Source of the DNA: Calditrichia bacterium
Lineage (GTDB): Bacteria > Calditrichota > Calditrichia > JAJRVZ01
DNA: 64,000 bases
Direction: 5' to 3'
NCBI GenBank assembly: GCA_963777955.1
Contig: CAVZSQ010000015.1
Span: forward strand, 256,001 to 320,000
Of this stretch, positions 38,204 to 57,700 are shown piece by piece. The translations under genes were made by a program, and so were the position numbers. Numbering within the stretch: the first letter of the stretch is position 1; each line of letters opens with the position of its first letter. The notes under the pieces were generated by a model. That model had not been told where the DNA came from. It did no database searches and saw only the letters and a list, made by a program, of their open reading frames with translations.

Positions 38204-40886
38204 CTATTTTGCGGTACGGATTGCTTCCTGCGCGGCCGCTAAACGGGCAATCGGTACGCGGTAAGGAGAGCAACTTACATAATTCATACCCACGCGGTGA
38301 CAAAAACCAACTGAGCGGGGTTCACCGCCATGCTCGCCGCAGATACCGATCTTCAGCCCGGGCTTGGTCTCCCGCCCTTTCTTGACAGCCATTTCCACCA
38401 GCTGCCCGACACCGGTCTGATCGAGTGTCTGGAAAGGATCATCCGGCAGAACCTGCTTCTGTTCATATTCAGCCAGAAATTTACCCGCATCATCACGGGA
38501 GAAACCAAAAGTCATCTGGGTCAGATCGTTGGTACCAAAAGAAAAGAATTCAGCCTCCTCGGCTATCTCATTGGCAGTTAAAGCCGCCCGGGGTACTTCG
38601 ATCATGGTTCCAATCATGTAGTCAACCTTGACTTTAAACTCTTTCTGTACCTGTTCGGCAGTGTTCTTGACCAATGTTTTTTGATTGGTTAATTCTGCTT
38701 TGGTCCCCACCAGCGGAATCATGATTTCCGGATATACTTTGACTCCCTCCTTGGTCAACTGACAGGCTGCTTCCATGATTGCCCTGGCCTGCATCTCGGT
38801 AATTTCGGGATAGGTAATACCGAGGCGGCAGCCGCGGTGTCCCAGCATCGGATTGATCTCGTGCAAAGAAGCTACCTTCGCTTTCACTTCATCCACGGAT
38901 GTACCCAGTTCGTCAGCCATCTCTTTTTGGCTCTTGTCATCCTGCGGTAAAAATTCATGCAGAGGCGGATCCAGGGTACGGACGGTTACCGGCAGATCGT
39001 GCATCGCTTTGAAGATCCCGTAGAAATCCTCTCTTTGATAGGGCAATAATTTTGCCAGTGCTTTACGGCGGCCGGCTTCATCATTAGCCAGGATCATTTC
39101 ACGTACTGCTTTAATGCGGTCGCCTTCAAAGAACATATGCTCGGTACGGCAGAGTCCGATACCTTCGGCGCCGAATTTCCTGGCTACTTCTGCATCATGA
39201 GGCGTGTCGGCATTGGTGCGCACCTTCAGTTTACGGTATTGGTCCGCCCAGGACATCAATATACCAAATTTACCGGATAGTTCGGGTGTAACAGTTGGCA
39301 CTTTTCCTTCGATCACTTCACCGGTTGAACCATCCAGCGAGATCCAGTCCCCTTCTTTTAAGGTCAGTTTACCGACTTTTAAATGTTTCTTTTTATAATC
39401 AATGTTTAAAACTGAACAACCGGCCACGCAACAGGTTCCCATCCCGCGCGCCACAACTGCTGCATGGGAGGTCATCCCGCCGCGGGAAGTCAATATGCCT
39501 TCGGCTACGTTCATACCACCGATATCTTCCGGTGATGTTTCAATTCGCACCAGCAATACCTGCTCCCCTTTGGCTGCCCAGGCTTCCGCATCATCAGCGT
39601 GAAAAACAATGCGTCCGGTGGCAGCACCGGGTGAAGCCGGTAAACCTTTGGCAATAACATTCTTTTTCAGCTTTCGGATCGAAAGTGGGATGCAATAACT
39701 GGTCAATCTGGTTAGGATCGAGCCGCATTATCGCTGTCTTGGTATCGATTAATTTTTCATCGGCCATTTCGACGGCTATGCGCACTGCAGCAGCCGCAGT
39801 ACGCTTTCCGTTGCGGGTCTGCAACATCCACAGTTTGCCTTTTTGAATGGTAAACTCAATATCCTGCATGTCCCGGTAATGCTTTTCCAGCAGATTGTAG
39901 ATTCGATCCAGGTCCTTGTAGGCGGCCGGCATGATCGATTGCAATGTCTGTTGCTCTTTACTGGTTTTAGTAGATTCATTCACCGGCTGTGGATTACGGA
40001 TACCTGCTACCACATCTTCACCCTGAGCGTTTACCAGGTATTCACCGTAGAATTTTCTTTCACCGGTGGCCGGATCGCGCGTAAAGGCCACACCGGTAGC
40101 GCAATCTTCGCCCATATTGCCGTATACCATGGCCTGCACGTTAACAGCGGTACCCCAGTTAGCCGGGATATTATGTAATTTACGGTAGGTTAAAGCGCGT
40201 TGATTGTTCCAGGACTGAAACACGGCGCTGATGGCCCCCCACAATTGTTCCCAGGGATCAGTGGGGAAATCCCTGCCGGTATTTTTCTTGATGGCGGTTT
40301 TAAATAGTTGAACCAATTCTTTCAAATCAGCCGCAGAAAGTTCCGTGTCCAGTTTCACACCGCGTTTCTGTTTTAACTCATGGATGATAACCTCGAAAGG
40401 ATCCTCCTCTTCCTTTGACTGCGGTTTCATTCCCAGCACCACGTCTCCGTACATCTGAGCGAAGCGCCGGTAGGAGTCCCAGCCAAAACGTTCATTTTTT
40501 GAATTGGTTATCAGGCCCTGCACCGTTTTATCATTCAAACCAAGATTCAGCACGGTATCCATCATACCCGGCATGGAAGCCGGTGCTCCGGAACGCACCG
40601 AAACCAACAGCGGATTTTTAGGATCGCCGAATGTCGCACCCATGATCTTTTCAATATAGACCACGCCGGCCTTAACCTGATTTATAACCTCCTGGGCATA
40701 TTTGCCCTTGCTCTTGTAGAATTCATTGCAGATTTCAGTCGAAATGGTGAAGCCAGCCGGTACCGGGATGCCCAGATTAGCCATCTCAGCCAGATTCGCA
40801 CCTTTGCCGCCCAGCAAAAGTTTCATATCGGCTTTTCCTTCAGCTTTTCCATCTCCAAACTTGTAAACAGACTTAGCAGCGGACAT
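38204..40886 (-). CDS. ppdK: Pyruvate, phosphate dikinase (frameshift at A-run near 39665)
   Basis: [38 protein letters not shown] and GICGEHGG motifs. ATG at 40886 follows GGAGGA. Confidence 0.96.
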
Positions 40887-41150
40887 ATTTCCTCCAAACA
40901 GTTGTAATATTATCATCAGATAAATTTCATAAATAAACAACGAATTTATGACACCCTTCCAACATTATCAATATAATTTCGGCTATTTTTCCGGAACTTT
41001 TGAGTAAATTCAGGTTAATTTTTAAAATTTATTTAATTACGACGAATCTTATTCACGCCGAATGTCGTTAGTATAAAATATTATGGCATCTGTCTGAACT
41101 TATTACACAGGCGACCAGGTTATCAGTTATTATAAAGGAATAAAATTAAA

Positions 41151-44531: not shown

Positions 44532-45962
44532 CTAATTTTTAGGCAGGGAGATCGTATATTCGCAAAAATTTTCGCTGGTAAAAGTGATTTTTATTTTCCC
44601 GCCGTGCATTTTCAGTTTTTTCTTGACCAGATCCATGTCGCTGAATATTTCTTTACTGTATTCGGCCTCGGTTAAATTTGAGGAAGCCAGACTGGGCATA
44701 AACAGCAAGCGGATGACCTCGGAGCCAAGGTGATCACCGGGTAAGGCGTTGCCGATGGCTGAAATTTCAGTTTCACTCGAATCGATGGTCTTCTGTAATA
44801 AGCGCTCAATACGGATCAGCCGGCCGTCATGCCGTAATTTAAATCCGAAAATACGCCGGTCGGCATAAGTCTCGATTTCAATTATACCAGTCGGATTTTT
44901 ATTGGCCGACTTCCTCTCTTCGGGTTTTTCGATGCAATAAAAAACGGAAAAACGGATCAGCAGGATCAGGAATTCACGGACAATTTGCTGATGTGAATAC
45001 GGGATGATTGAATTATCAAAATTTTTATAATTGAACTGAATTTTCCTGCCCAGTTCTTTGGCCAGATTTTCCACCAGATTTTGCAGGGAGCGGATCATCA
45101 GACCGCCTTCGTATCTGCGGGTGGGACGCAACGAATTATTGAAATGTTTGAAGCGTTGCATCAATAATTTAACATCTTCCAGCATATGCCGGATCTCGCC
45201 CAGTTGAATAACTGCCGGCACAAAATCACTGCCCACAATTTCCGCACGGTCTTTAATTTTGCCTATTTCCACTTCAAAGTTTATCAACTTATCTTTGAAA
45301 AACTTAAGATTAAGCAGGGAAGCATTGCTTTTCAGGTGGTGGACAGTGCGTAAAATTTTATGCAGGATTATTTTGCAGTCCTCGGTCCCATGGGCATTTT
45401 TAAGTTCCGTGTCGATGTTATTCATCTCAATTTCGGTGACTTCAATGAATTCTTTGAGCAGGGGCGGTGCAATGCCCAGAATACAGACCAGCCATTCCAT
45501 TTGCTTCTCGGTCGTTTTTTCGATCTCTTCCAGTTTTTTGGTCAGGGAGATCTGCTTGGTCAGATCTTCAACCGTACAAATGAGTTTGGCAATAGCGCCC
45601 TCGGCCCGGATTCGTTTAAACTTGAAGGACAGGAATTTTGAAGAGGTCCATAAACCCCAGCGATTTTCAAATTGAAATTCGCTGAGATGCAGGGGATTTA
45701 ACTCATTGATTGTTTCTTCATCAAGATCGTCACGAAACATCAGATTAAGAAATTCCAGGGTATTGCTGATAATATTTTCAGGCACACGGTGTTCAAGCAG
45801 GGATATAAAATTCTGGCCGGCCGTGACTTTTTGATCGATAATAGATTCCAGGGAAGAAGAGAAATTTTCTTCGATTTCAAATTGCGGATTTAGAAAAAAA
45901 AGACCCTCATCGATCGCGAAGAGGATCAAATTTTTCTCACTGTCAAGTGGTATTGTGTGCAT
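44532..45962 (-). CDS. CheA-like PAS-like/Hpt protein with degenerate HATPase (pseudokinase)
   Basis: Hpt ILRTVHHLKSNASLL keeps the His. N-box reads LIRFSVFYCIE, G1 reads HDGRL and the G2 box is absent. Confidence 0.75.
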   Translation of the reverse strand: MHTIPLDSEKNLILFAIDEGLFFLNPQFEIEENFSSSLESIIDQKVTAGQNFISLLEHRVPENIISNTLEFLNLMFRDDLDEETINELNPLHLSEFQFENRWGLWTSSKFLSFKFKRIRAEGAIAKLICTVEDLTKQISLTKKLEEIEKTTEKQMEWLVCILGIAPPLLKEFIEVTEIEMNNIDTELKNAHGTEDCKIILHKILRTVHHLKSNASLLNLKFFKDKLINFEVEIGKIKDRAEIVGSDFVPAVIQLGEIRHMLEDVKLLMQRFKHFNNSLRPTRRYEGGLMIRSLQNLVENLAKELGRKIQFNYKNFDNSIIPYSHQQIVREFLILLIRFSVFYCIEKPEERKSANKNPTGIIEIETYADRRIFGFKLRHDGRLIRIERLLQKTIDSSETEISAIGNALPGDHLGSEVIRLLFMPSLASSNLTEAEYSKEIFSDMDLVKKKLKMHGGKIKITFTSENFCEYTISLPKN

Positions 45963-46120: not shown

Positions 46121-46567
46121 CTATTCCAGGCACACCACCAGGAAAGATTTATGCTCATTCCAGTTAATTGGAATAACGAAAGACTGGATGTTGTCAGGCA
46201 GTTTGATGTCTTTGGCTTTCCCTTCCACAACTACAGGTACGGAAATCATAAAATCACTGCCGTAGGCCTGCCGGACGTTTCCGGAAATAGTATTGGCAAT
46301 CTCGCCAACCAGATCTTTAATGTCTTCCCTTTTCACCTCTTTGGCGCCCAGAATGATATGGGCAACTGATTTAAGCATTTCTTCGGTTGTCGTAATATAC
46401 ACGCTTCCTTTACGTTTCCCCGATATACCGATAATACCGGTATATTCAAGTACTACGGGAGATTCATCTTTAATGTAAGGAATACCCGTACTGGCTTTGC
46501 TGTTAGTCACCTCATCAAAATAATTCAAAGTACTATCGATAAAAAAATGAAGATCGGTCTCGTTCAT
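46121..46567 (-). CDS. cheX: CheX-family CheY-P phosphatase
   Basis: YTGIIGISG..KG and DLVGEIANTISGN (E-x2-N) and ISVPVVV motifs. Confidence 0.9.
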   Translation of the reverse strand: MNETDLHFFIDSTLNYFDEVTNSKASTGIPYIKDESPVVLEYTGIIGISGKRKGSVYITTTEEMLKSVAHIILGAKEVKREDIKDLVGEIANTISGNVRQAYGSDFMISVPVVVEGKAKDIKLPDNIQSFVIPINWNEHKSFLVVCLE

Positions 46568-46584: not shown

Positions 46585-46959
46585 TTAATTTTGGGCAATA
46601 AGCCGTTCAAACGAGCTTCGCAGTTTCTCGGGTGTGAATGGTTTCGGCAAGAAACTTTTAGCACCTAGTTTAATCGCTTTAAGGCCGGTGGCCTTGTCGG
46701 ACAATGCAGTAATCACCATCACTTTGACGTCTTTCTTGATCTTCAGCATTTCTTCCAGTACGGTTAAGCCGTCTAATTCCGGCATGGTGATATCGAGGGT
46801 CACCACGTCAGGATCGGTTTGCCTGAAAATATCCAGTGCCACCTTCCCATCTTCGGCTTGGCCGACAACCTCGATATTAAAGTTCTTCAGATGTTTGTGG
46901 ATTGCTTCTCTGATGATTAGAGAATCATCTACAATCATCACTTTAACCTTGTCTTTCAT
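46585..46959 (-). CDS. CheY-like single-domain response regulator
   Basis: IVDDS, VVGQAEDG, TLDITMPELDG, ITAL and KPF motifs. Confidence 0.9.
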   Translation of the reverse strand: MKDKVKVMIVDDSLIIREAIHKHLKNFNIEVVGQAEDGKVALDIFRQTDPDVVTLDITMPELDGLTVLEEMLKIKKDVKVMVITALSDKATGLKAIKLGAKSFLPKPFTPEKLRSSFERLIAQN

Positions 46960-47028: not shown

Positions 47029-49905
47029 CTATTGATTTCGGTATAAGGGTAAATTTATTTTAAATTCAAAATTCTTTCCCGGGATATTAGTAATTCTGAT
47101 CTGGCCATCGAATTTCTTTATCTTTTCCTTAATTGTATTCATACCGATTCCCTTCTTGGTAACCGGATCAAATTGTTCCGAAGAATAGATTCCCGGTTCA
47201 AAGATCAATTCGCCCAGTTGTGATTCGGTCCAGGAATCGATGGTGGCAGGCTCCCATTTGCCGAGTATTTTTGCCCGCTGAATCAATTTATCGAATTGCA
47301 GACCACAGCCGTCGTCCCGGTAAGAAAATTCGAAGGTATGCTCATTCAGCCGGGACTGAATTTCAATGATTCCACGCTCTGATTTTTTCCGGTTGCGCCG
47401 TTCCTCAGCCGTCTCAATACCATAGCGAATGGAATTGCGGGCCAGTTGCAGCGTAATATCTTTGACCAGGTTCTTATATAGATGGGGAATGGTTGTGCCA
47501 TCGAAATGATCATGGAGCAGGATCACCTGTTTATTCATGGCCGTGCTCATATTCTGAATGAAATTCTTAATGGAATTGAGCATTTTTTCACTCTCATAAC
47601 TGCGTTTGGGCCGGAAGTAACTTTGAATAGTACTCATTTTTTCAATCAGGGAACTGACCTCGCGCAGTGAATATTGAATTTCATTGAGGTGCAGGTTAAT
47701 GCCGATAAAGTCTTTACCCTGGATTTCTTTTTTATCCCGGACCTTGAGAATCAGGTCCTCGGTTTCATCGGCCATATTGGAAAAAAAGGCCAGATCAAGC
47801 AACCCGGAATTCTCTTTAATCGAGCGAACCGACTCGTGTATATTTTCTAAAACCTGGCGGTACACACTTTCATGACCACCCTTGCGCATAACATCGATTA
47901 TGGAGGCCATTTCCATTTGCGCACTGTCGATAAATTCCCGTAACAATTTTGGTTCGACATGCAAAATGCCGATCAACCATTCCAGTCGTTTTTTAGAATG
48001 AGATTCGACTTCGTTTAAACGTTTCTCCAGGCGTACCTGTTCGGTGATATCATCCACCGCTACAAGCACTTCATTAAACTGGCCGCCATCGATAATTCGT
48101 TTAAACTTAAACGACAGGCATTTCATTTCCGCCAATAATTGATTCTGATGGTTAAAATTCATCTCGATGTTGGTCAGCGGATTAAGTTCATTGATACTGA
48201 TCTCATCGACGCCAGGATCAAATATCAATTCTAAAAAACGGGTAACATCATCCAGTCGCTCATCCGAAATTTTATTGCGAAAGAGTTCCAGCAGGTTCTG
48301 CTGGGCTAAATCCCTTCTCTGAAAAATACCTTCCAGGGCCAGTGAGTATTGCGAACTTAATTCGTATTTTGAATTCAACAGAAACAATCCCTCTGCGGCA
48401 TTAGCCAGAATATCGTCGGTTTCGCTTTTCGCTCTCTGCAAACTATTGCGCGATTTGCGCAACTCGGTCTCTATTTCACGCCGTTCCGAAATTTCCTGCT
48501 GGGCTTGCTGGTATAATTTGGCATTTTCAATGGCCGTGGCTATCTGTGTACTCAGCAGGCAGGCATTATCGATATCGCTTTCTTTGAAAGCGTTTACCTG
48601 ATCACTCTGCATGTCCAGCACGCCGATAAGTTTTTTCCCGACGGTGATCGGTACGGCCAGTTCCGAACGGGTACATTCGCTTGCTTTTTTGATAAAATTT
48701 GGATTTTTCAGGACATTGTTGCTCACCTGGACTTTGAAGGATTGTGCGGCGGTCCCGACCATGCCCTCGCCTACCTGCAGGGTCAGATCTTTGGAAAAAT
48801 AGGTACTGTATCCACCGGCCAGCGCTTTTAAGCGCAAGGTCTTCTCATCGTTATCAAGCAGCAGTAACATAACCCCGTAAAAACTAAAAGCGTCACAAAC
48901 CGAGGTGACAATGTCCTTCAACAGGGTATCCAGATCCAGGGATCGGTTTATTTTCTGGCCGATTTCATTAAGCAACGTTGCCTGGCGCGCCCGATGAAGG
49001 GCATCTTCTTCTGCTTTCTTCCGTTTATGCTCCAATTCTTCAATTTTTCTGCTCTCCAGTGCATCAAAATAAAGCGCGGCTGCTCCAAGCAGAGCCATAT
49101 TCTCACGGTCCGATACTTTTATCTCCAGGTTCTGAACCGAACGCTGGAAGACAAAGGAGCGCAGACCCTGATTCAAACTGGTTTTGATCAATTGATAGGC
49201 CCTGGCCAGAGGACCGCCTAAAATAATGATCTCGGGATCAAGGGCACATATAATTGATTTTATAACATCACTGAGATTTAAGCCGAACTGTTTAAAATGT
49301 TCCCGGGCTTTTTTATCCCCTTTTACTGCCAGTTCATAAACCGTTTCGAAAGGTTCCTGCGCTATGTTTTTAAAATATTGATTGCTGCAGTAATATTCAA
49401 AATCATGATCACGATAAGGTATTTTCCCGAATTCACCCACCCCGCAATTGATCCCTGAATATAGTTTATTCTCGATGATGATTCCTGCACCCATCCCCTC
49501 ACCCAGGATCAAGCCTACTACATTTGAATATTTTTTGCCACTGCCAAAATGTTTTTCTCCGGCCGCAAAACAATTGGCATCATTATTTACGTACACCGGT
49601 ACTTTAAAATGTTTATGCAATTTGTCTTTCAGGTGCACTTCTTTCCAGGATGGAATACGGGTCACTTCGTAAACGATCCCTTTTTCCACATCAACAATAC
49701 TCGGTACGCCAATGCCGATACCGGCAACCTGCGCTCCGAAGATTGCCTCGATATGCATGATTAACTCATTGATAATCATGTCCTGGCTGGCTGCTGAAGA
49801 AATTTTATACTGATGAAAAGAATTCAATTCCTGGCCGCTGACCTTCCCCAGGCGCGCATAAATACCGTCTATATCGATGCCAATAATCTGTTTGTCTGTA
49901 TTCAT
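47029..49905 (-). CDS. ROK-GAF-PAS-like-Hpt(His-less)-HATPase CheA-like kinase
   Basis: GIGIGVPS, NNDANC and GEFG (ROK); GEGMVG and RSELAVPI (GAF); IHESVRSIKENSGLL (Hpt-like); RNSIRYGIE, DDGCG and GIGM. No CheW domain. Confidence 0.8.
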   Translation of the reverse strand: MNTDKQIIGIDIDGIYARLGKVSGQELNSFHQYKISSAASQDMIINELIMHIEAIFGAQVAGIGIGVPSIVDVEKGIVYEVTRIPSWKEVHLKDKLHKHFKVPVYVNNDANCFAAGEKHFGSGKKYSNVVGLILGEGMGAGIIIENKLYSGINCGVGEFGKIPYRDHDFEYYCSNQYFKNIAQEPFETVYELAVKGDKKAREHFKQFGLNLSDVIKSIICALDPEIIILGGPLARAYQLIKTSLNQGLRSFVFQRSVQNLEIKVSDRENMALLGAAALYFDALESRKIEELEHKRKKAEEDALHRARQATLLNEIGQKINRSLDLDTLLKDIVTSVCDAFSFYGVMLLLLDNDEKTLRLKALAGGYSTYFSKDLTLQVGEGMVGTAAQSFKVQVSNNVLKNPNFIKKASECTRSELAVPITVGKKLIGVLDMQSDQVNAFKESDIDNACLLSTQIATAIENAKLYQQAQQEISERREIETELRKSRNSLQRAKSETDDILANAAEGLFLLNSKYELSSQYSLALEGIFQRRDLAQQNLLELFRNKISDERLDDVTRFLELIFDPGVDEISINELNPLTNIEMNFNHQNQLLAEMKCLSFKFKRIIDGGQFNEVLVAVDDITEQVRLEKRLNEVESHSKKRLEWLIGILHVEPKLLREFIDSAQMEMASIIDVMRKGGHESVYRQVLENIHESVRSIKENSGLLDLAFFSNMADETEDLILKVRDKKEIQGKDFIGINLHLNEIQYSLREVSSLIEKMSTIQSYFRPKRSYESEKMLNSIKNFIQNMSTAMNKQVILLHDHFDGTTIPHLYKNLVKDITLQLARNSIRYGIETAEERRNRKKSERGIIEIQSRLNEHTFEFSYRDDGCGLQFDKLIQRAKILGKWEPATIDSWTESQLGELIFEPGIYSSEQFDPVTKKGIGMNTIKEKIKKFDGQIRITNIPGKNFEFKINLPLYRNQ

Positions 49906-49941: not shown

Positions 49942-52900
49942 TTAAGATTCTGCTGCGGCAAACGTTTTTTCTTTCAAAGCTGCTTCTTTGGTCTTTTTGG
50001 TTAACGGAATTTTAATCGAAAATTCACAAAATTTTCCGGTTTTTGTATTTATCTTAATGCTTCCGCCCAGGCGATCAATTTTGTCTTTGACCAGATCCAT
50101 GCCTACGCCCCGCCCTGCGATCAGACCCGCTTTCTCCGAAGTCGATATTCCGGATTTATATATAATTTCAGCAACCTGCTGATTAGTCCAGCCATCAATT
50201 TCTTCGGCTGACCAGTGGCCGGAAGTCCTTGCTTTAGCGCGGAGTTTATCGAGTTGCAGACCGCGTCCATCGTCGCGGAAGGTGAAAGCGAAAGTCTTTT
50301 CATTTAAACTCATTTCGATCTCGATGCGGGCCTGCGGATCTTTTTTAAGTACAGACCGTTCCTCGGGATTTTCAATGCCGTGGTAAATGGCATTACGAAC
50401 CATCTGGATAATTATTTCACGCGTGGTCAGACGATAATGGTATGGTATATTCCCGGCATCAAATTTATCGTAAACCAGTTTTACCTTTTTACCCTGCTCC
50501 TGGGCCAGATTATTGATTAAATTCTCGATCGATTTGATAAATAACTCGCTTTCATAACTGCGTTTAGGCCGGAAATGAGAATGCACATTGCTTACGCGTT
50601 CGATCAGATTGTGCAATTCATCCAGGGTCCGCCGGATGTCCCCCAGACGCAACACCAGCGGCACAAAATCTGCGCCGCTTAATTTTGGTTTCTTTTTAAG
50701 ATCTTCGATGCGGTCTTCAAATTCATGCGCTTTTTCCACGAAAAATTTTAAATCCAGCAGAGAAGCATTGCCTTTGATGATGTGCATCGAACGATATACT
50801 TTTTCCAGGACCGGGATAAAATTGCTAACCTGTTCATCCTGCCGCAGGACTTTATCGATGTAGTCTAATTCCAGATAGGCACTTTCAGAGAATTCCTGCA
50901 AAAGTTTTGGCTCCACATGCAAAATGCTCAACAGCCAGTCCATTTGTTTTTTACTCATCGCCAGTGATTCTTCCAGTTTCCGGGCCAGCACAATCTGGTC
51001 GGAAAGATCGTTGACTGTAACGATCAGCTCGGAGACTTTATTTTCATCGTCGATTACCCGTTTGAATTTAAAGGCTAAATACTTTGATTTCAGCCAGACG
51101 TCTGTCTCATCCCTGAAATTAAATTCGATCTCACTCAGCGGATTGAGATCTTTCAGGGTATCTTCATCAACATCGGTCTTAAACATTAATTCCAGAAATT
51201 CCTGCAAATTGGTGAAGAGCTTTGTGGTCATTCTTTTTTCGACGATGTCCAGGAAATTTTTTCTGGCCGCACGTTTTTCTTCTAAAATTTTTTCAACTGC
51301 CAGCGAGTACTGCGAGCGTAATTTCAATTCAGGATCGATCAGGAAAATGCCCTCTTCCACATTACGCATAATATTATCGGTCTCTCGCTTCGAACGGCTC
51401 AGCAAACGATTTCTTTCTTTCAGTTCCTGGGTTCGCTCGGCAACCTGTGATTCCAGGAATATCCTTTGCCGGTCTACCCGTCTCATACTGAGCCGATAAA
51501 TACTATAGGCCAGGCCCAGGACAAAGAAGGCGGCCAATATTCTAAACCACCATCTTTGCCAGAATGGCGGGGCAATTATAATTTTAATGGACGTTCCGGC
51601 TCTGTTCCAGAGGCCATCACTATTCGTCCCGGCGACTTTAAAGACATATTCGCCGCCATCCAGGTTGGTATAGTTGGCATACCGGCGGTTACCACACTGG
51701 ATCCAATCGCGGTCAAATCCTTCCAGTTTATAGGCATAGATGTTTTTTTCGGGATTACTATAATCCAGGGCGGCAAATTCAAATGCGAAAAAATTCTTGC
51801 GGTAAGATAATTGTAATTCATGTATTTCTGAAATGGTAGAATCTAAACTTACTTCCTTATCAAAAATCTTAAACGAAGTAACGATCAGCGGAGGAACAAA
51901 CTGGTGTTCCTTTACCGCCTTCGGGTAGAAACGATTATAACCATTAATACCGCCAAAGAACAATTCACCTGACTTGCTTTTAAAGCAGGCCCCCGCGTTG
52001 AATTCATTACTCTGCAATCCGTCATTGGCATCAAAGTTCTTAAAAGTCAAAGAATCCGGAGCGAAGCGGGACAACCCGCGATTGGTACTGATCCATAAAT
52101 ACCCATCGTCATCCTCGGCCAATCCATAAATGGTACTGTGGGGTAATCCCTCACTTTCGGTAAAACGGGTAAAAATATTTTCGTCGGGATCAAACCGGTT
52201 TAAACCGCCGCCGAGCGTGCCGATCCACATTATTCCTTTACGATCCTGCAAGATTGCCGAAACACGTTCGTGGCTGAGTGAATTTTGATTATCCGGCTCG
52301 GTCATGTAACGATTAAAAGTTTTACTTACCGGATTGAATTTATTCAATCCTTTATAAGTTCCTATCCAGATAAATCCCTTTTTGTCTTCGTACAAGCATA
52401 AGATACGGTTATCGGTTAAACTGTTTTTATCGGCCGGATCATGGCGGTAATGACGAAAATTATTGCGGTCACTGATAAACTGATCCAATCCGGCCCAGGT
52501 GCCAACCCACATATTGCCCAGGTGATCCTGCAGCATGGCCCGGACACTATTGTCGCTGAGACCGGACAAGTCCTTGGGATTGTATTTGTAAACTTTCACT
52601 GAATTGCGGGCGGGATCATATTGACATAATCCGCCACCATTCGTACCGAACCAGATCATTCCGTATTGATCTTCATCGATCACCCTGATAAAATCATCAC
52701 TCAGTGCGTTCTTCTTGCGGGCCTCTGCGCTGAAGACAGTTAACTTATTGGTCCGTTTATCAAAACGGTTGACTCCCTTGCTGGTGCCCAGCCATAAATT
52801 TTCTCTGCGGTCAACCAGAATCGACCAGACCGTGTTATCGGTTAAACTGTTAGGATCTCCCGGTTCGTTTTTGTAGTGACCGAATCTTCTCTTCTTCCAG

Positions 52901-54015
52901 TCGAAATGATTTAATCCGGCGCCATAGGTGCCAAGCCAAATTGTACCTGATTTGTCGGCGTAGATACAACGCAGCAGGTCGCCGCTCAGGCTGTTATATT
53001 TGGCAGGATCGGAGAGCACCTGCCAGAATTTATTGCTGAGCGGATCCAGTATATTTAGTCCCAAATCAGTCGCCAGCCAGATCAATCCGGTTCGATCACA
53101 GAATATAGAATGGATCATGTTATTGTTCAGGCTGTTCTTGTCGTTTTTCCTGGCCAGGTAAGACTTAAATTTCTTGCGTTGTTTATCCAGTTTATTCAAG
53201 CCATGCTGTGTGCCAATCCACAGATTGTGCTGGGGATCTTCCAGAATGCTCAGAATATCATTGCTGCTCAGCGAATTGGCCTGGCGTGGATCGGCGATGT
53301 ATCGCCTGAACCGGAATTCTCCAGATTTAAGTTTCTGGGCAGAACACAAGCCACCCCCCTGCGTACCGATCCATATCACTCCAGATTTATCCTGATACAA
53401 TACAGTAATTTTCTCCGTGCCGAAACTGAAGGGATCCGATTCATCGTTCCAGAAATGGGTGATTTGCCTGGTTTGGATATTTAATAAATCTAATCCGCCG
53501 CCATCAGTACCGATCCACAGATAAATCGTACTGTCCACCAGCAGGGCTGAAACATAGTCGCTGCTGATCGTGTTTTCATTCTTTGGATCATAACGAAAAC
53601 ATTCAAATTTTTCGGTGAAGCGATTGAATCGATTAAGACCGCCGCCCAGCGTACCGATCCATAGATTTCCGGCAGAATCACCGGTCACTGCATTTATCCA
53701 GTTATCACTGAGCGAAAGACTATCCTGCTGCACATGTTTGAAAATCTTAAAATTGTAACCATCATAACGATTCAGGCCGTCCTGTGTTCCGAACCAAAGG
53801 AATCCCTGCTCGTCCTGATAAACATCTTCCACAGAACTTTGTGATAAACCCTGTTCGATAGAAATTCGTTTAAAATTCAGGTTATAATTTTGTGCAGCCA
53901 GTTCACCGAAAAATCCAGGACTGCTCAAAATTAAAAACAGACACAGATAATTGTGATACGATCTGACTTTAACAATCGCACAACGGATGGTTGATCCCCC
54001 GCTACTGCTAATCAT
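49942..54015 (-). CDS. Membrane sensor CheA-like (class III-type) histidine kinase: propeller/Y_Y_Y-TM-PAS-like-Hpt-HATPase
   Basis: Many WIGT..GL repeats, YTNLDGGEY, PPFWQRWWF TM, RSMHIIKGN Hpt, RNAIYHGIE, DDGRG and GRGVGMDLVK. Ends without a CheW domain. Confidence 0.88.
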   Translation of the reverse strand: MISSSGGSTIRCAIVKVRSYHNYLCLFLILSSPGFFGELAAQNYNLNFKRISIEQGLSQSSVEDVYQDEQGFLWFGTQDGLNRYDGYNFKIFKHVQQDSLSLSDNWINAVTGDSAGNLWIGTLGGGLNRFNRFTEKFECFRYDPKNENTISSDYVSALLVDSTIYLWIGTDGGGLDLLNIQTRQITHFWNDESDPFSFGTEKITVLYQDKSGVIWIGTQGGGLCSAQKLKSGEFRFRRYIADPRQANSLSSNDILSILEDPQHNLWIGTQHGLNKLDKQRKKFKSYLARKNDKNSLNNNMIHSIFCDRTGLIWLATDLGLNILDPLSNKFWQVLSDPAKYNSLSGDLLRCIYADKSGTIWLGTYGAGLNHFDWKKRRFGHYKNEPGDPNSLTDNTVWSILVDRRENLWLGTSKGVNRFDKRTNKLTVFSAEARKKNALSDDFIRVIDEDQYGMIWFGTNGGGLCQYDPARNSVKVYKYNPKDLSGLSDNSVRAMLQDHLGNMWVGTWAGLDQFISDRNNFRHYRHDPADKNSLTDNRILCLYEDKKGFIWIGTYKGLNKFNPVSKTFNRYMTEPDNQNSLSHERVSAILQDRKGIMWIGTLGGGLNRFDPDENIFTRFTESEGLPHSTIYGLAEDDDGYLWISTNRGLSRFAPDSLTFKNFDANDGLQSNEFNAGACFKSKSGELFFGGINGYNRFYPKAVKEHQFVPPLIVTSFKIFDKEVSLDSTISEIHELQLSYRKNFFAFEFAALDYSNPEKNIYAYKLEGFDRDWIQCGNRRYANYTNLDGGEYVFKVAGTNSDGLWNRAGTSIKIIIAPPFWQRWWFRILAAFFVLGLAYSIYRLSMRRVDRQRIFLESQVAERTQELKERNRLLSRSKRETDNIMRNVEEGIFLIDPELKLRSQYSLAVEKILEEKRAARKNFLDIVEKRMTTKLFTNLQEFLELMFKTDVDEDTLKDLNPLSEIEFNFRDETDVWLKSKYLAFKFKRVIDDENKVSELIVTVNDLSDQIVLARKLEESLAMSKKQMDWLLSILHVEPKLLQEFSESAYLELDYIDKVLRQDEQVSNFIPVLEKVYRSMHIIKGNASLLDLKFFVEKAHEFEDRIEDLKKKPKLSGADFVPLVLRLGDIRRTLDELHNLIERVSNVHSHFRPKRSYESELFIKSIENLINNLAQEQGKKVKLVYDKFDAGNIPYHYRLTTREIIIQMVRNAIYHGIENPEERSVLKKDPQARIEIEMSLNEKTFAFTFRDDGRGLQLDKLRAKARTSGHWSAEEIDGWTNQQVAEIIYKSGISTSEKAGLIAGRGVGMDLVKDKIDRLGGSIKINTKTGKFCEFSIKIPLTKKTKEAALKEKTFAAAES

Positions 54016-54247: not shown

Positions 54248-54622
54248 TCATTTTGCAATAAGGCGTTCGAAGGCATCTTTTAATTTTTGCGGGCCAAATG
54301 GCTTGGTAATGTAACTTTTTGCGCCCAGACGGAGTGCTTTGAGACCGGTGGCTTTATCGGCTAAGGCAGTAATAACAACAACCTGTACATCCTTATCCAG
54401 CCGGATCATTTCATCCAGGACATCAAAGCCATCGAGTCCCGGCATGGTTATATCGAGAGTAACTATCTCCGGACTATGCTTTTTAAACATCTCCAGAGCC
54501 GAGTTACCATCGGTGGCGGTTCCGATGATCTTAACGTTATAATTCTCCAGGAATTTAGAGATCGCTTTGCGAACCACCAACGAATCGTCAACGATGAGTA
54601 ATTTTTTTTGATTTTTATCCAT
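54248..54622 (-). CDS. CheY-like single-domain response regulator (paralogue of 46585..46959)
   Basis: IVDDS, TLDITMPGLDG, ITALADKATGLKALRLGAKS and KPF motifs. Confidence 0.9.
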   Translation of the reverse strand: MDKNQKKLLIVDDSLVVRKAISKFLENYNVKIIGTATDGNSALEMFKKHSPEIVTLDITMPGLDGFDVLDEMIRLDKDVQVVVITALADKATGLKALRLGAKSYITKPFGPQKLKDAFERLIAK

Positions 54623-54712: not shown

Positions 54713-57700
54713 TTATTCAAAATTGAAATTTATCAGCCAGCGGAACTTTTGATGGTCCTTATTGACAGCCAGGTTGCCGATCCACAAAGGAAAATCCATC
54801 CCGATGCTCTTTAAATTGAATAAAAAATCGGCCCACTTCCCCATTGGCAGCTGTAAACCGAATCCGGCTGATTTTTGAAATTGGCCCAGGGCAGGCATGG
54901 ATCCGGACCAGACCGAACCGATATCGGCAAATACATAAGTCGTTAAATCCCGCAGCATGAACAGGCTGCTATAGCGTAATGGATTAGGAATCACGATATC
55001 CAGATTGCCGGCAATTATTTTATTGTCCAGGATTGGAGTCGGACTGCCGCTCAGCGAAGCACCGCGCACATTACCGCCACCTGCTTTAAATAAATGACCA
55101 TTCTTACGCCAGGGATAAGGCAGACTACCCTTGCTGCGGTAGAATGGTTCGTTGAATTCATCCCAGCCGTTTGCACCACTTAAGTTAAACTGGAATTGTG
55201 CCGGAACTCTTCCCTTGCCGTAGCCGGTATAGCAGCGCAGCACTGCTTGCCAGTCTGAACGTGCATTCGAGAAAATCCGGCTGGCCTCCAGATAAATCTG
55301 AGCAAAGCCGTAAGCGCTGCCTAAAAACGATGTATGGGTAAAAACCGTCACTTCGTATTTTTTCCTCCAACTGTGGCGGTAGTTGGCTGCGGTTTTAAAA
55401 TTGAGGAATAGAGTAGTAACATCATTTTCATCCCAGGCTGCCATTAAATAGGATGGATTAAAAACGTGATGGCCGGTTAATCCTAATCCATACTCGAGCG
55501 ACTTAAGATAATTCTGCGACAGTTGACCGGTCAATCCGCAACTGCCCCCCTCCCGGCCGTCCAGACGGTACAGGCTTAGATCAAACCGGACGTTATTTCC
55601 GATAGCATAAAATGGAGTACGGTAAGAAACTTCCGCGTCGACCGCCGGATGGGCCGTTTTATACCATACCCGGGCGTTCAGTTTATGATCGATGTTCAGG
55701 TAACTCCCATTTAATTTGATACCTGCCCTGGCCTGATCATAGTCATTGTAAAAAAATAACGGCCAGATTTCCCAGATATATTTATCTAAAGGCGGAGCAT
55801 AACTCTGGTAACGCATCCAGTGAAATTCCTGTTCGGGCAGGCAGGAGGAAGTATTATTCAAACTGTTTATATCCGTCAAACTCAGTGTTGAATCAAGTTT
55901 GACCATTCTGATTCCGTCCGACAGGGTCAAATTGGCCGTGTATTTTTTTTGACTGAAATGCCAGTAAGGTAAAGTGATCCGGTTGCCGGCCGGTTCGCTG
56001 CTGTTATCGACCGGTACATGAAAACGTTGTACGGTGCCATCTTTTAAATATACGCTGAAATCAACCGGCATGAAGATTTCGGCTTTTCTATCCAGATTAA
56101 CCTGGCATTTATAAAAGCGCCGGCCATCAATTTTTTCCCAATGCCCCCGGTAGCCCTGGACCGCATAATCCAAGTTTCCGGCTGGTGCTCAACCACTGTT
56201 CAAAAAACCAGTCCAGATCGCGGTTTGCCGTTTTTTCCATCACTGTAATGAAATCCCGGGTGTAAGGATGGTGAAAACACCATTGATTAAAATATTCCTG
56301 CAGGCCCAGGGAGAACAAACTATCACCCAGGGTATATTCCAGCATGAATAAAACCATGGCCATTTTAGAATATTGCAAAATGTAGATATCATCCCCCAGA
56401 TAATCAGAAGGCAAGGCGATAGGATCCCGGTCGAATCCGGATTTACTGTAACGCAGGTACTGCCAAGCCGTGCTCCTGCGGTCGTCATCGCGGTAGGCGG
56501 TTTTCTGTTCAAACCAGCCGGATCTGATCTTCGCTAAATTATCTTTCACTCCGAAGATTGCTTCCATCGCTTTAATTTCAGCAAAGGTGGCAAATCCTTC
56601 ATCCAGCCAGCCTTGCTCGGTCTGGTTATTAGCCAGCAGGCCGTAAAACCAGAAATGAGCCATTTCATGCAGCAGTAAGGCGCGGAACTCACCCGGTTCA
56701 TACTCCGGATTGATATAATCGTTAAGCAATACGATCTGCGGATATTCAATACCGCCGGCCCGGACATACGTATCAGCAATAGTTAATTGTTGATAAGGAT
56801 AATGCCCGAAAGTATCATTAAAATACTGCAGACCCCGCACCGCCCATTCGTTAACCTGTTTCCAGGATTCGCGGTTATAATCCAGTGCCAGGACATTGAT
56901 GGTGATCCCCTGCCATTCCGACTGCATCAATACATAGGCCGGATCGGCAGTCCAGGCAAAATCATGCACATTTTTTGCTTCATAGTACCATTGAACCGGC
57001 CCGGGCGTCTCATATTCTTCTGACTGTTGCCCTTGACTGCTGCTACTGTCCTTTGCGGAGTTCGCTGCGGAACTACTGAGCAAATTGCCGGTAGCACCTA
57101 CTGTAAATCCCGCCGGGACATTTATAGTGACCAGGAAATCCCCCCATTCCTGATAAAATTCGTTATCCAGATGCTGGTGCAGATGCCATCCGTCCCGATC
57201 ATATACCACCGGGGTGACATACCAATTGCCGATGTCGTAATGATTGCCGAGATAGCCATAACGATCACTGGCCGGTGGAATCATTACGGTAAATTTAAAG
57301 TGCCAGCGAACCGATTCACCCGGAGCAAGCGGATGGTGCAGTTGTGTTTTCAGCAGAGTCTGATCGATACTGAAATTTTTCTGCAATGAGTCATTTTCCT
57401 GTATGGTATGGATGGTAATTCCGCCCAGATCGGCTTTAAGGTCGGGCAGGAATAAAGAACCGGCACGGTATTTATTCATATATAAATGGAAGTACAGCAC
57501 CCGCAGGGTATCAGCCGAATGGTTGGTATAAAGTAATGTTTCGTCGATATTCAGATGGTTCAGATTGATATCGAGTTTAACATCCATGGTGTAGTGCACG
57601 TATTGCTGGAAATACTGTGTTTGATCCGGAGTGGACAGCAAATCCATCCGGGGATTGCAGCAGAACTGCAACTGTACTAAATAGAAGAATTAAATTATTC

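Follow-up and report, generated by a model that had tools for sequence, protein, structure and literature searches.

Class III histidine kinases (HKIII) carry their own N-terminal input domains followed by a histidine phosphotransfer (Hpt) domain and a CheA-type ATPase, and they have no CheW domain. They were reportedly described by Wuichet and Zhulin in 2010 and by Adebali et al. in 2017, and to our knowledge kinases of this type have been little studied experimentally. The class is cited in PMC6501615 (excerpt), and CheA itself is defined in excerpted text of PMC10782961 as a sensor-less protein with a CheW domain that always contains P1, P3, P4, and P5. ROK domains, according to excerpts of PMC3553997, are known in two roles, as sugar kinases and as the effector domains of repressors. 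Here we analyze an open reading frame (ORF) at 47029..49905 on the minus strand of a 64,000-nucleotide stretch of DNA from a Calditrichia bacterium (GenBank assembly GCA_963777955.1, contig CAVZSQ010000015.1, positions 256,001 to 320,000; hereafter the window, numbered from its first letter), which encodes an uninterrupted, predicted soluble protein of 958 amino acids (aa) in which a ROK domain is followed by a GAF domain, a PAS-like domain, an Hpt domain, and a CheA-type ATPase. We favor, with moderate confidence, the reading that the ROK domain is a non-catalytic sugar sensor that controls a class III–type kinase.

Both halves of this protein have precedents, in the ROK sensors of repressors and in sensor-bearing CheA-like kinases, and the combination is not known from the literature that we searched. 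We found no ROK–histidine kinase protein in that literature, to which the primary HKIII papers and their supplements, which may list the architecture, did not belong. If our reading is correct, ROK would have a third use, feeding a phosphorelay as a receptor that binds sugar directly inside the cell. Class III–type kinases, in genomes most of which have neither flagella nor type IV pili, would also gain a defined small-molecule input. The ROK part is soluble and only 282 residues long, so a ligand screen should be easy.

Architecture and distribution of the fusion protein

The ROK domain spans residues 1–282 (49060..49905; all features of this locus lie on the minus strand) and was delimited by Pfam, an AlphaFold model, and a residue alignment. 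The profile PF00480 matches at residues 8–279 (E 2.7e-38, 132.6 bits against a cut-off of 22.9), and the model (predicted local distance difference test, pLDDT, 94; predicted template modeling score, pTM, 0.91) resembles solved ROK kinases and repressors (2qm1, TMq 0.91; also 5f7r and 1z6r). No N-terminal helix-turn-helix (HTH) domain was found, as the ROK profile begins at residue 8, and in the close relative L001 the open frame extends just 14 codons 5′ of the match. Pfam also places GAF_2 at residues 323–460 (48526..48939), where the protein has its sole strong hydropathy peak, and HATPase_c at residues 816–954. A model of residues 489–958 (pLDDT 82) shows three further parts. The first, at about residues 495–620 (48046..48423), is a PAS-like domain common to all cores of the family, recognized by its pattern of strands and helices without a Pfam match (Z 11.4 to the PAS domain 10jx over model residues 1–132). 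It is followed by a P1-like Hpt bundle (47626..47961; Z 13.9 to CheA P1, 1tqg), in which the acceptor His is replaced by Arg694 (codon at 47824–47826), and by a P4-type ATPase (47038..47604; Z 20.8 to CheA, 1b3q; E 2.4e-16 to CheA P4), the last strand of which is the end of the protein. Pfam found neither a CheW (P5) domain nor a P3 dimerization domain in the fusion protein, and in the model about 6 residues separate the last Hpt helix from the ATPase. A scan for promoters and terminators stayed at chance level (25 vs. 24.2; 10 vs. 11.0).

The protein therefore is, as a preliminary description made from the window's letters had said, an in-frame fusion of ROK, GAF, and a kinase core, since a single unbroken 958-codon frame has Pfam matches for all three. 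The same description called the output a CheA-like kinase, and this is right for the P1-like Hpt and P4-type ATPase, which together with CheY and CheX partners recall the CheA proteins of E. coli and T. maritima. Unlike CheA, however, the fusion protein has three input domains of its own, no CheW domain (P5), and apparently no room in the model for P3. By the definition given at the outset, the chassis would fit the class III histidine kinases and not CheA proper: it combines N-terminal inputs, Hpt, and a CheA-type ATPase without CheW, and single-domain receivers lie nearby. It differs from the described class in that the input is a ROK pseudokinase and in that the window copy is predicted to be catalytically dead.

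A profile of the kinase core recovers a large family, ROK being carried by 10 of the best 150 representatives. We scanned 60 of these 150 for N-terminal domains and found the slot to hold propeller/Y_Y_Y, GAF, PAS, receiver, HAMP, PilJ, MASE6, LacI-type sugar-binding, and ammonium-transporter domains, with a CheW domain in 0/60. This survey supports the view that ROK sits where related kinases appear to hold their sensors, and because of that position an ATP-dead sugar sensor is likely. In the window's genome (G000) we count nine cores of this kind, a single close match to CheX, and, apart from these, a classical CheA cluster; the nine cores, with their different inputs, seem to share the one CheX.

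Several of the related cores are unusual in themselves. P0183 is fused to a full ammonium transporter and P0180 to a LacI-type sugar-binding domain, and P0152 is a 4858-aa protein with 32 stretches that match the core profile. One of the nine cores of the window's genome, a paralogue at G000:C3:184146-186296 (L120), has the Hpt motif HCVKGN and a short membrane-anchored N-terminus. Two other paralogous kinase genes, G000:C15:11080-12931 (receiver-core) and G000:C3:36143-40176 (propeller-core), are apparently frameshifted into two or three ORFs, which could be long-read errors or true breaks.

The fusion recurs in other genomes. Among 120 listed homologues of 197 found, 24 carry ROK within long proteins (758–1440 aa). 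In a survey of 86 genomes of the class Calditrichia, the ROK subfamily was present in 20 and gave 12 long-frame matches in 11, and a kinase core was verified behind ROK in 11/11 fetched loci (10 other genomes). This recurrence rules out an assembly artefact, which the preliminary description had named as a possible refutation. A check of sequencing reads adds little: at most 0.17 of the words were present in any run, and the assembled contigs were short, with none across the whole gene and no joints. Among 26 long relatives of the ROK domain alone, 24 are annotated with Hpt and/or HATPase, alignment reveals the core in one more, and the last is truncated; we found no output domain other than the Hpt/HATPase core among these 26, within the limited reach of the search. 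The spacer between ROK and core varies among 12 fusions scanned (GAF, PAS, PAS-GAF-GAF, or none), such that GAF is optional and is missing in P0026, P0028, P0030, and P0032; in P0030, an intact family member, and in P0032, ROK is the sole annotated input domain. A metagenome scan for operon contexts covered 25 loci and showed a kinase core only in L149, followed there by a 93% identical ROK start. The named records bearing the fusion are Calditrichota (4/80 loci), and we regard the fusion as lineage-bound, tied to this phylum. In a quick tree, from which 11 duplicate or short rows were omitted, a branch with a value of 89 in the Shimodaira–Hasegawa-like approximate likelihood ratio test (SH-aLRT) separates the fused rows from all others; the tree is unrooted and so does not establish a single origin.

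Nucleotide site, sugar pocket, and probable ligand of the ROK domain

To examine the two halves of the ROK active site, we compared 38 non-redundant fused ROK domains (40 rows minus 2 near-duplicates) with 54 stand-alone relatives chosen on DxGGT only. The motifs of the fusion, GIDIDGIY, NDANC, GEG, and GEFGK, read as first reported and align with GVDIGGTK, NDAN, GTG, and AEFGH of S. griseus glucokinase. In the window domain the ATP motif is DIDGI in place of DxGxT; relative to the intact proteins, D11 and G14 are kept, and the changes are G13D, T15I, T136E, G175N, and G186F. An intact DxGxT is found in 0/38 fused domains. T136, G175, and G186, each present in 54/54 controls, are kept in 10/38, 1/38, and 0/38, respectively, and D11 in 30/38; G175 and G186 presumably line the nucleotide pocket. 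The sugar-contact positions N108, D109, E158, and E/D170, in contrast, are kept in 38/38 fused domains against a median column conservation of 0.58, and the window domain has N108, D109, E158, and E170.

These positions can be read against P. shigelloides NagK, where D6 contacts the metal, T10 and T132 the phosphates, and N104, D105, E154, H157, and D187 the sugar, and where kcat falls from 202 per s to 12.5 per s in T10V and 18.4 per s in T132V (PMC10031466, excerpt). When the roles are mapped by motif, D11, N108, D109, E158, and E170 are kept and both Thr are gone (I15 and E136). An altered DxGxT with a retained sugar site is what an excerpted source describes for ROK repressors (PMC3553997). 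We conclude that degradation in the fused family is selective for the ATP site and retention selective for the sugar pocket, a pattern that supports what had been proposed for the window domain on its own, including retention of NDANC and the sugar-binding Glu residues.

The domain thus combines features of several known proteins. It shares the fold and the sugar-contact residues with ROK sugar kinases (P. shigelloides NagK, S. griseus glucokinase, and F. nucleatum NanK) but differs from them in its replaced phosphate-binding Thr and conserved glycines and in the fused kinase core. It resembles the ROK repressors (NagC, Mlc, XylR, Thermotoga ChiR/ManR/GluR, and Lmo0178) as what is predicted to be a non-catalytic sugar-sensing fold, with an altered DxGxT and kept sugar residues; unlike them, it has no N-terminal HTH and no Zn motif, has a C-terminal phosphorelay output, and belongs to a different, Zn-less subfamily. 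The signature of that subfamily, GEFGx..EYYCS, is shared with stand-alone relatives from Bacteroidota and Ignavibacteria at 45–54% identity. The Zn motif CxCGxxGCxE is absent from the window ROK domain, from the intact stand-alone relatives, and from the aligned segment of F. nucleatum NanK, and its lack is a subfamily trait. The same holds for the His of GExGH, whose replacement in GEFGK had been taken as a sign of inactivity: because 53/54 intact DxGGT relatives lack it too (it is present in just 1/54), its loss is not diagnostic, and we discarded the His-to-Lys change as a mark of an inactive domain. Only the Lys or Arg at this position seems peculiar to the fusion (K/R161 in 27/38 fused domains vs. 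0/54 intact relatives).

An alternative to the sugar-sensor reading, which we consider unlikely, is that ROK is a protein-interaction module: its partner would be a transporter or an active ROK kinase, whose state it would report to the core. Mlc pairs with EIIB, and the window's genome keeps an intact stand-alone paralogue behind a major facilitator superfamily (MFS) gene. In a Bacteroidota clade of stand-alone pseudokinases, moreover, a second ROK gene (DxGGT intact wherever inspected) lies within 6 kb in 22/25 loci vs. 0/51 others. Pairing of this kind has to be set against the invariance of the four sugar-contact residues and against the genomes themselves, as no stand-alone subfamily member at E ≤ 1e-40 was found in 9/11 fusion genomes, several of which are incomplete.

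For the identity of the sugar, we turned to 76 stand-alone loci, with one representative per cluster annotated and neighbors taken within 6 kb. A GluP/NagP-like MFS transporter lies beside 57/76, an exo-β-D-glucosaminidase homologue beside 34/76 (E 7e-140 to 2vzs), and NagB, the glucosamine-6-phosphate deaminase, beside 10/76. Loss of the His that binds the 2-OH accompanies C2-modified ligands according to an excerpted source (PMC3553997). From these operons, together with the link between His loss and C2, the parent of the fused domain was likely an amino-sugar kinase, and the ligand would most likely be a free sugar, namely an amino sugar such as glucosamine or N-acetylglucosamine (GlcNAc). 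The preliminary description had allowed for a sugar or a sugar-phosphate. We favor the free sugar, and a 6-phosphate ligand seems less likely, given that Glu136 replaces the phosphate-binding Thr.

Whether the charge of the pocket could speak for a phosphorylated or otherwise anionic sugar (a sugar-phosphate or a uronate) instead of a neutral or amino sugar is a related question, and we hold this to be distinctly unlikely. R83 is found in 27/38 fused domains and in 0/54 intact relatives, the same counts as for K/R161, with both residues at the 1-/2-OH side, and NagC, which has GlcNAc-6-phosphate as its effector, is a precedent. E136, however, lies at the phosphate site of NagK T132 and would be expected to repel a 6-phosphate; R83 may simply pair with E136 (27/27), though one clade counts as one event; and N83, present in 54/54 controls, is kept in 10/38 fused domains, with P0028 an example of the N83/T136 type. 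The covariation of R83 and E136 was not accepted as proof of a salt bridge, as every row that shows it belongs to a single clade of 28 rows.

The Bacteroidota pairs mentioned above are of interest in their own right. An intact DxGGT kinase is followed in tandem by a stand-alone pseudokinase, in which the ATP motif is degraded but the sugar residues are kept, at L027:9123-10876, L033:9087-10840, L035, L040, L043, L055, L057, L062, and L073, in exo-β-glucosaminidase/MFS/NagB operons. Such a pair is possibly a kinase–pseudokinase heteromer or an HTH-less sugar sensor.

The window copy, its operon partners, and a proposed mechanism

In the window copy, the histidine kinase core is probably inactive, judging from its motifs. 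Besides the Hpt change His694Arg, it has His828Tyr in the N-box, Ser907Tyr, and Gly917Lys at the first glycine of G2, with the N-box Asn and G1 kept. Among 140 other cores, H is present at 828 in 134, S or T at 907 in 132, and G at 917 in 133. Lys917 corresponds to Gly470 of E. coli CheA by structural alignment offset, and G470K, which we take to be a kinase-dead allele of that protein, was not found in our literature search. The Hpt His is kept in 31/36 ROK fusions and the G2 glycine in 29/36; the three lid changes occur in 5/36, four of which also lack the Hpt His. The ratio of nonsynonymous to synonymous substitution rates (dN/dS) relative to a same-genus orthologue is nevertheless 0.04–0.10 for each of the domains (one pairwise comparison), and the Hpt and ATPase, though predicted to be dead, are no exception. 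Because the core is degraded yet under purifying selection, the window copy likely signals through the propeller kinase encoded upstream.

This kinase (49942..54015) is a predicted membrane protein, by Pfam, motifs, and hydropathy, with Reg_prop and Y_Y_Y domains and the same core, in which the His and ATP motifs are intact, and on this basis it is the likely active partner. Pfam further identifies two single-domain CheY-like receivers (54248..54622 and 46585..46959), the second 59% identical to the first, and a CheX phosphatase (46121..46567), which is the sole close match in the genome. A third core, a 476-aa protein without any input domain (44532..45962), keeps its His but has the N-box Asn changed to Phe and no G2. 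Pairing of ROK with the propeller kinase, as had been proposed, is seen in the window and in 4/11 fetched loci (5/12) and is not general. Where both kinases occur, the window and G043 pair a ROK core that looks dead with an intact propeller core, G041 has an intact ROK core beside a propeller core that lacks His and G2, and G045 and G025 keep both cores intact. The third protein, with its His kept and its ATP motifs lost, occurs in the window and G045, and its G041 counterpart has an equally dead ATPase and a broken reading frame. A complex prediction for the cores of the ROK protein and the propeller kinase scored 0.39 (best control 0.00), with runs agreeing in ≥93% of contacts and a partner pLDDT of ≥78. 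The mark for a complex was reached by 116/157 solved pairs and 2/215 mismatches; at ≤0.60 these were 18/157 and both mismatches, so the predicted pairing of the two cores is only weakly favored. The simplest reading of these motifs is that the operon's kinase subunits may share one active core, and the way in which operon partners have lost catalytic residues reciprocally offers a model, open to testing, of how kinase heteromers may integrate signals.

One-operon paralogous kinases with complementary dead domains are known from the split CheA3/CheA4 of Cereibacter (Rhodobacter) sphaeroides (PMC10782961, excerpt), which unlike the present proteins join chemoreceptor arrays via CheW domains; here there are three CheW-less cores, and the ROK protein looks dead at both sites. 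On this precedent the ATPase of the ROK protein could phosphorylate the His of the third protein (44532–45962), as the ROK protein lacks His and keeps the N-box Asn and G1 and the third protein shows the reverse. We think this very unlikely, for the ATP lid of the ROK protein is also changed (Y828, Y907, and K917), and an ATPase-dead third protein exists beside a fully intact ROK kinase in G045 and G041, which makes it independent of the ROK-core defect.

According to the sugar-sensor reading, binding of a free sugar would close the ROK cleft, and this motion would travel via a coiled coil and the GAF and PAS-like domains to the kinase core. In most family members the core is intact, and there the sugar signal would set autophosphorylation of the protein's own Hpt His. 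In the window copy the dead-core ROK protein would instead be an allosteric subunit that tunes the upstream propeller kinase, a step in which we have less confidence than in the sensor reading as a whole. Phosphate would pass to single-domain CheY, CheX would take it off again, and the third protein might act as a relay or sink, such that intracellular sugar and extracellular glycan signals would merge on the same CheY pair. More tentatively, and with clearly more doubt than belief, we picture a receptor-free, motility-independent pathway of Calditrichota with ROK as its direct cytoplasmic amino-sugar receptor, in which ROK, propeller, and His-only subunits form heteromers that share one active core, so that catalysis can be lost from either subunit. 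Histidine kinases would then have a new type of input as well as a new mode of integrating two signals.

Several findings weigh against this account. In 7/11 fetched loci (two contigs being short) the ROK kinase had no visible propeller kinase as its neighbor, the reciprocal case was seen only once, in G041, where part of the locus is frameshifted, and the weak complex score may reflect the homodimer likeness of paralogues that are 42% identical. For the ligand, the window's genome has no close exo-β-glucosaminidase homologue (best 23% identity), and a match at E ≤ 1e-60 was found in only 4/11 fusion genomes, one of them partial. R83 and K161 lie at the predicted C1/C2 side of the pocket, corresponding by motif offset to positions 196 and 280 of TM1224 (PMC3553997, excerpt), and they may alter or close the pocket, such that the parental substrate need not be the ligand. 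Finally, the window ROK domain retains D109 as catalytic base and D11 as metal ligand, and in NagK a single Thr mutation leaves 6–9% of kcat (PMC10031466, excerpt), so some residual ROK activity is possible. The least probable alternative, that ROK is still an active, perhaps slow, sugar kinase whose catalytic cycle is read by the histidine kinase in a bifunctional protein, can appeal to D11, G14, and D109, to the label "glucokinase" that the Joint Genome Institute (JGI) gave several homologues by automatic naming, and to the fusion being the sole subfamily member found in 9/11 genomes, but the domain has changed at five ATP-site positions where all 54 intact relatives agree, and the genome has two other ROK kinases, intact and stand-alone, one of them at C19:382933-383757.

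Pathway output and other observations

A CheX orthologue is present in 8/11 fusion genomes, 5 of the 11 being below the 90%/5% quality bar. FliG was found in 1/11 and not in the window's own genome, and flagellar output was rejected on these grounds; the PilT family exceeded the cut-off in 1/11 and in none of the proteins of the own genome (91.8% complete). Because FliG and PilT are each over the cut-off in only 1/11 fusion genomes, the output is probably not motility, and the CheY target is probably neither flagella nor type IV pili. The link to type IV pili reported for class III histidine kinases is thus not seen here. With PilM as the query there was a single match, weak and partial, to a 411-aa frame, and we did not interpret it. 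The genome's single classical chemosensory cluster, with a CheA that has a CheW domain, one methyl-accepting chemotaxis protein (MCP), and CheW, lies elsewhere, at G000:C13:178252-186427, although neither FliG nor PilT was found in this genome.

Two further genes of the window appear to be interrupted. At 38204–40940, what is presumably a pyruvate phosphate dikinase–like gene is present as two overlapping ORFs (39594–40940 and 38204–39706), with an apparent frameshift near 39600–39700; its homologue in G045 reads through for at least 677 aa. At 54713–57671, an M1 peptidase ORF overlaps a downstream outer-membrane-like ORF, and since G041 has one 1028-aa protein in their place, the overlap suggests a frameshift in the window's assembly.

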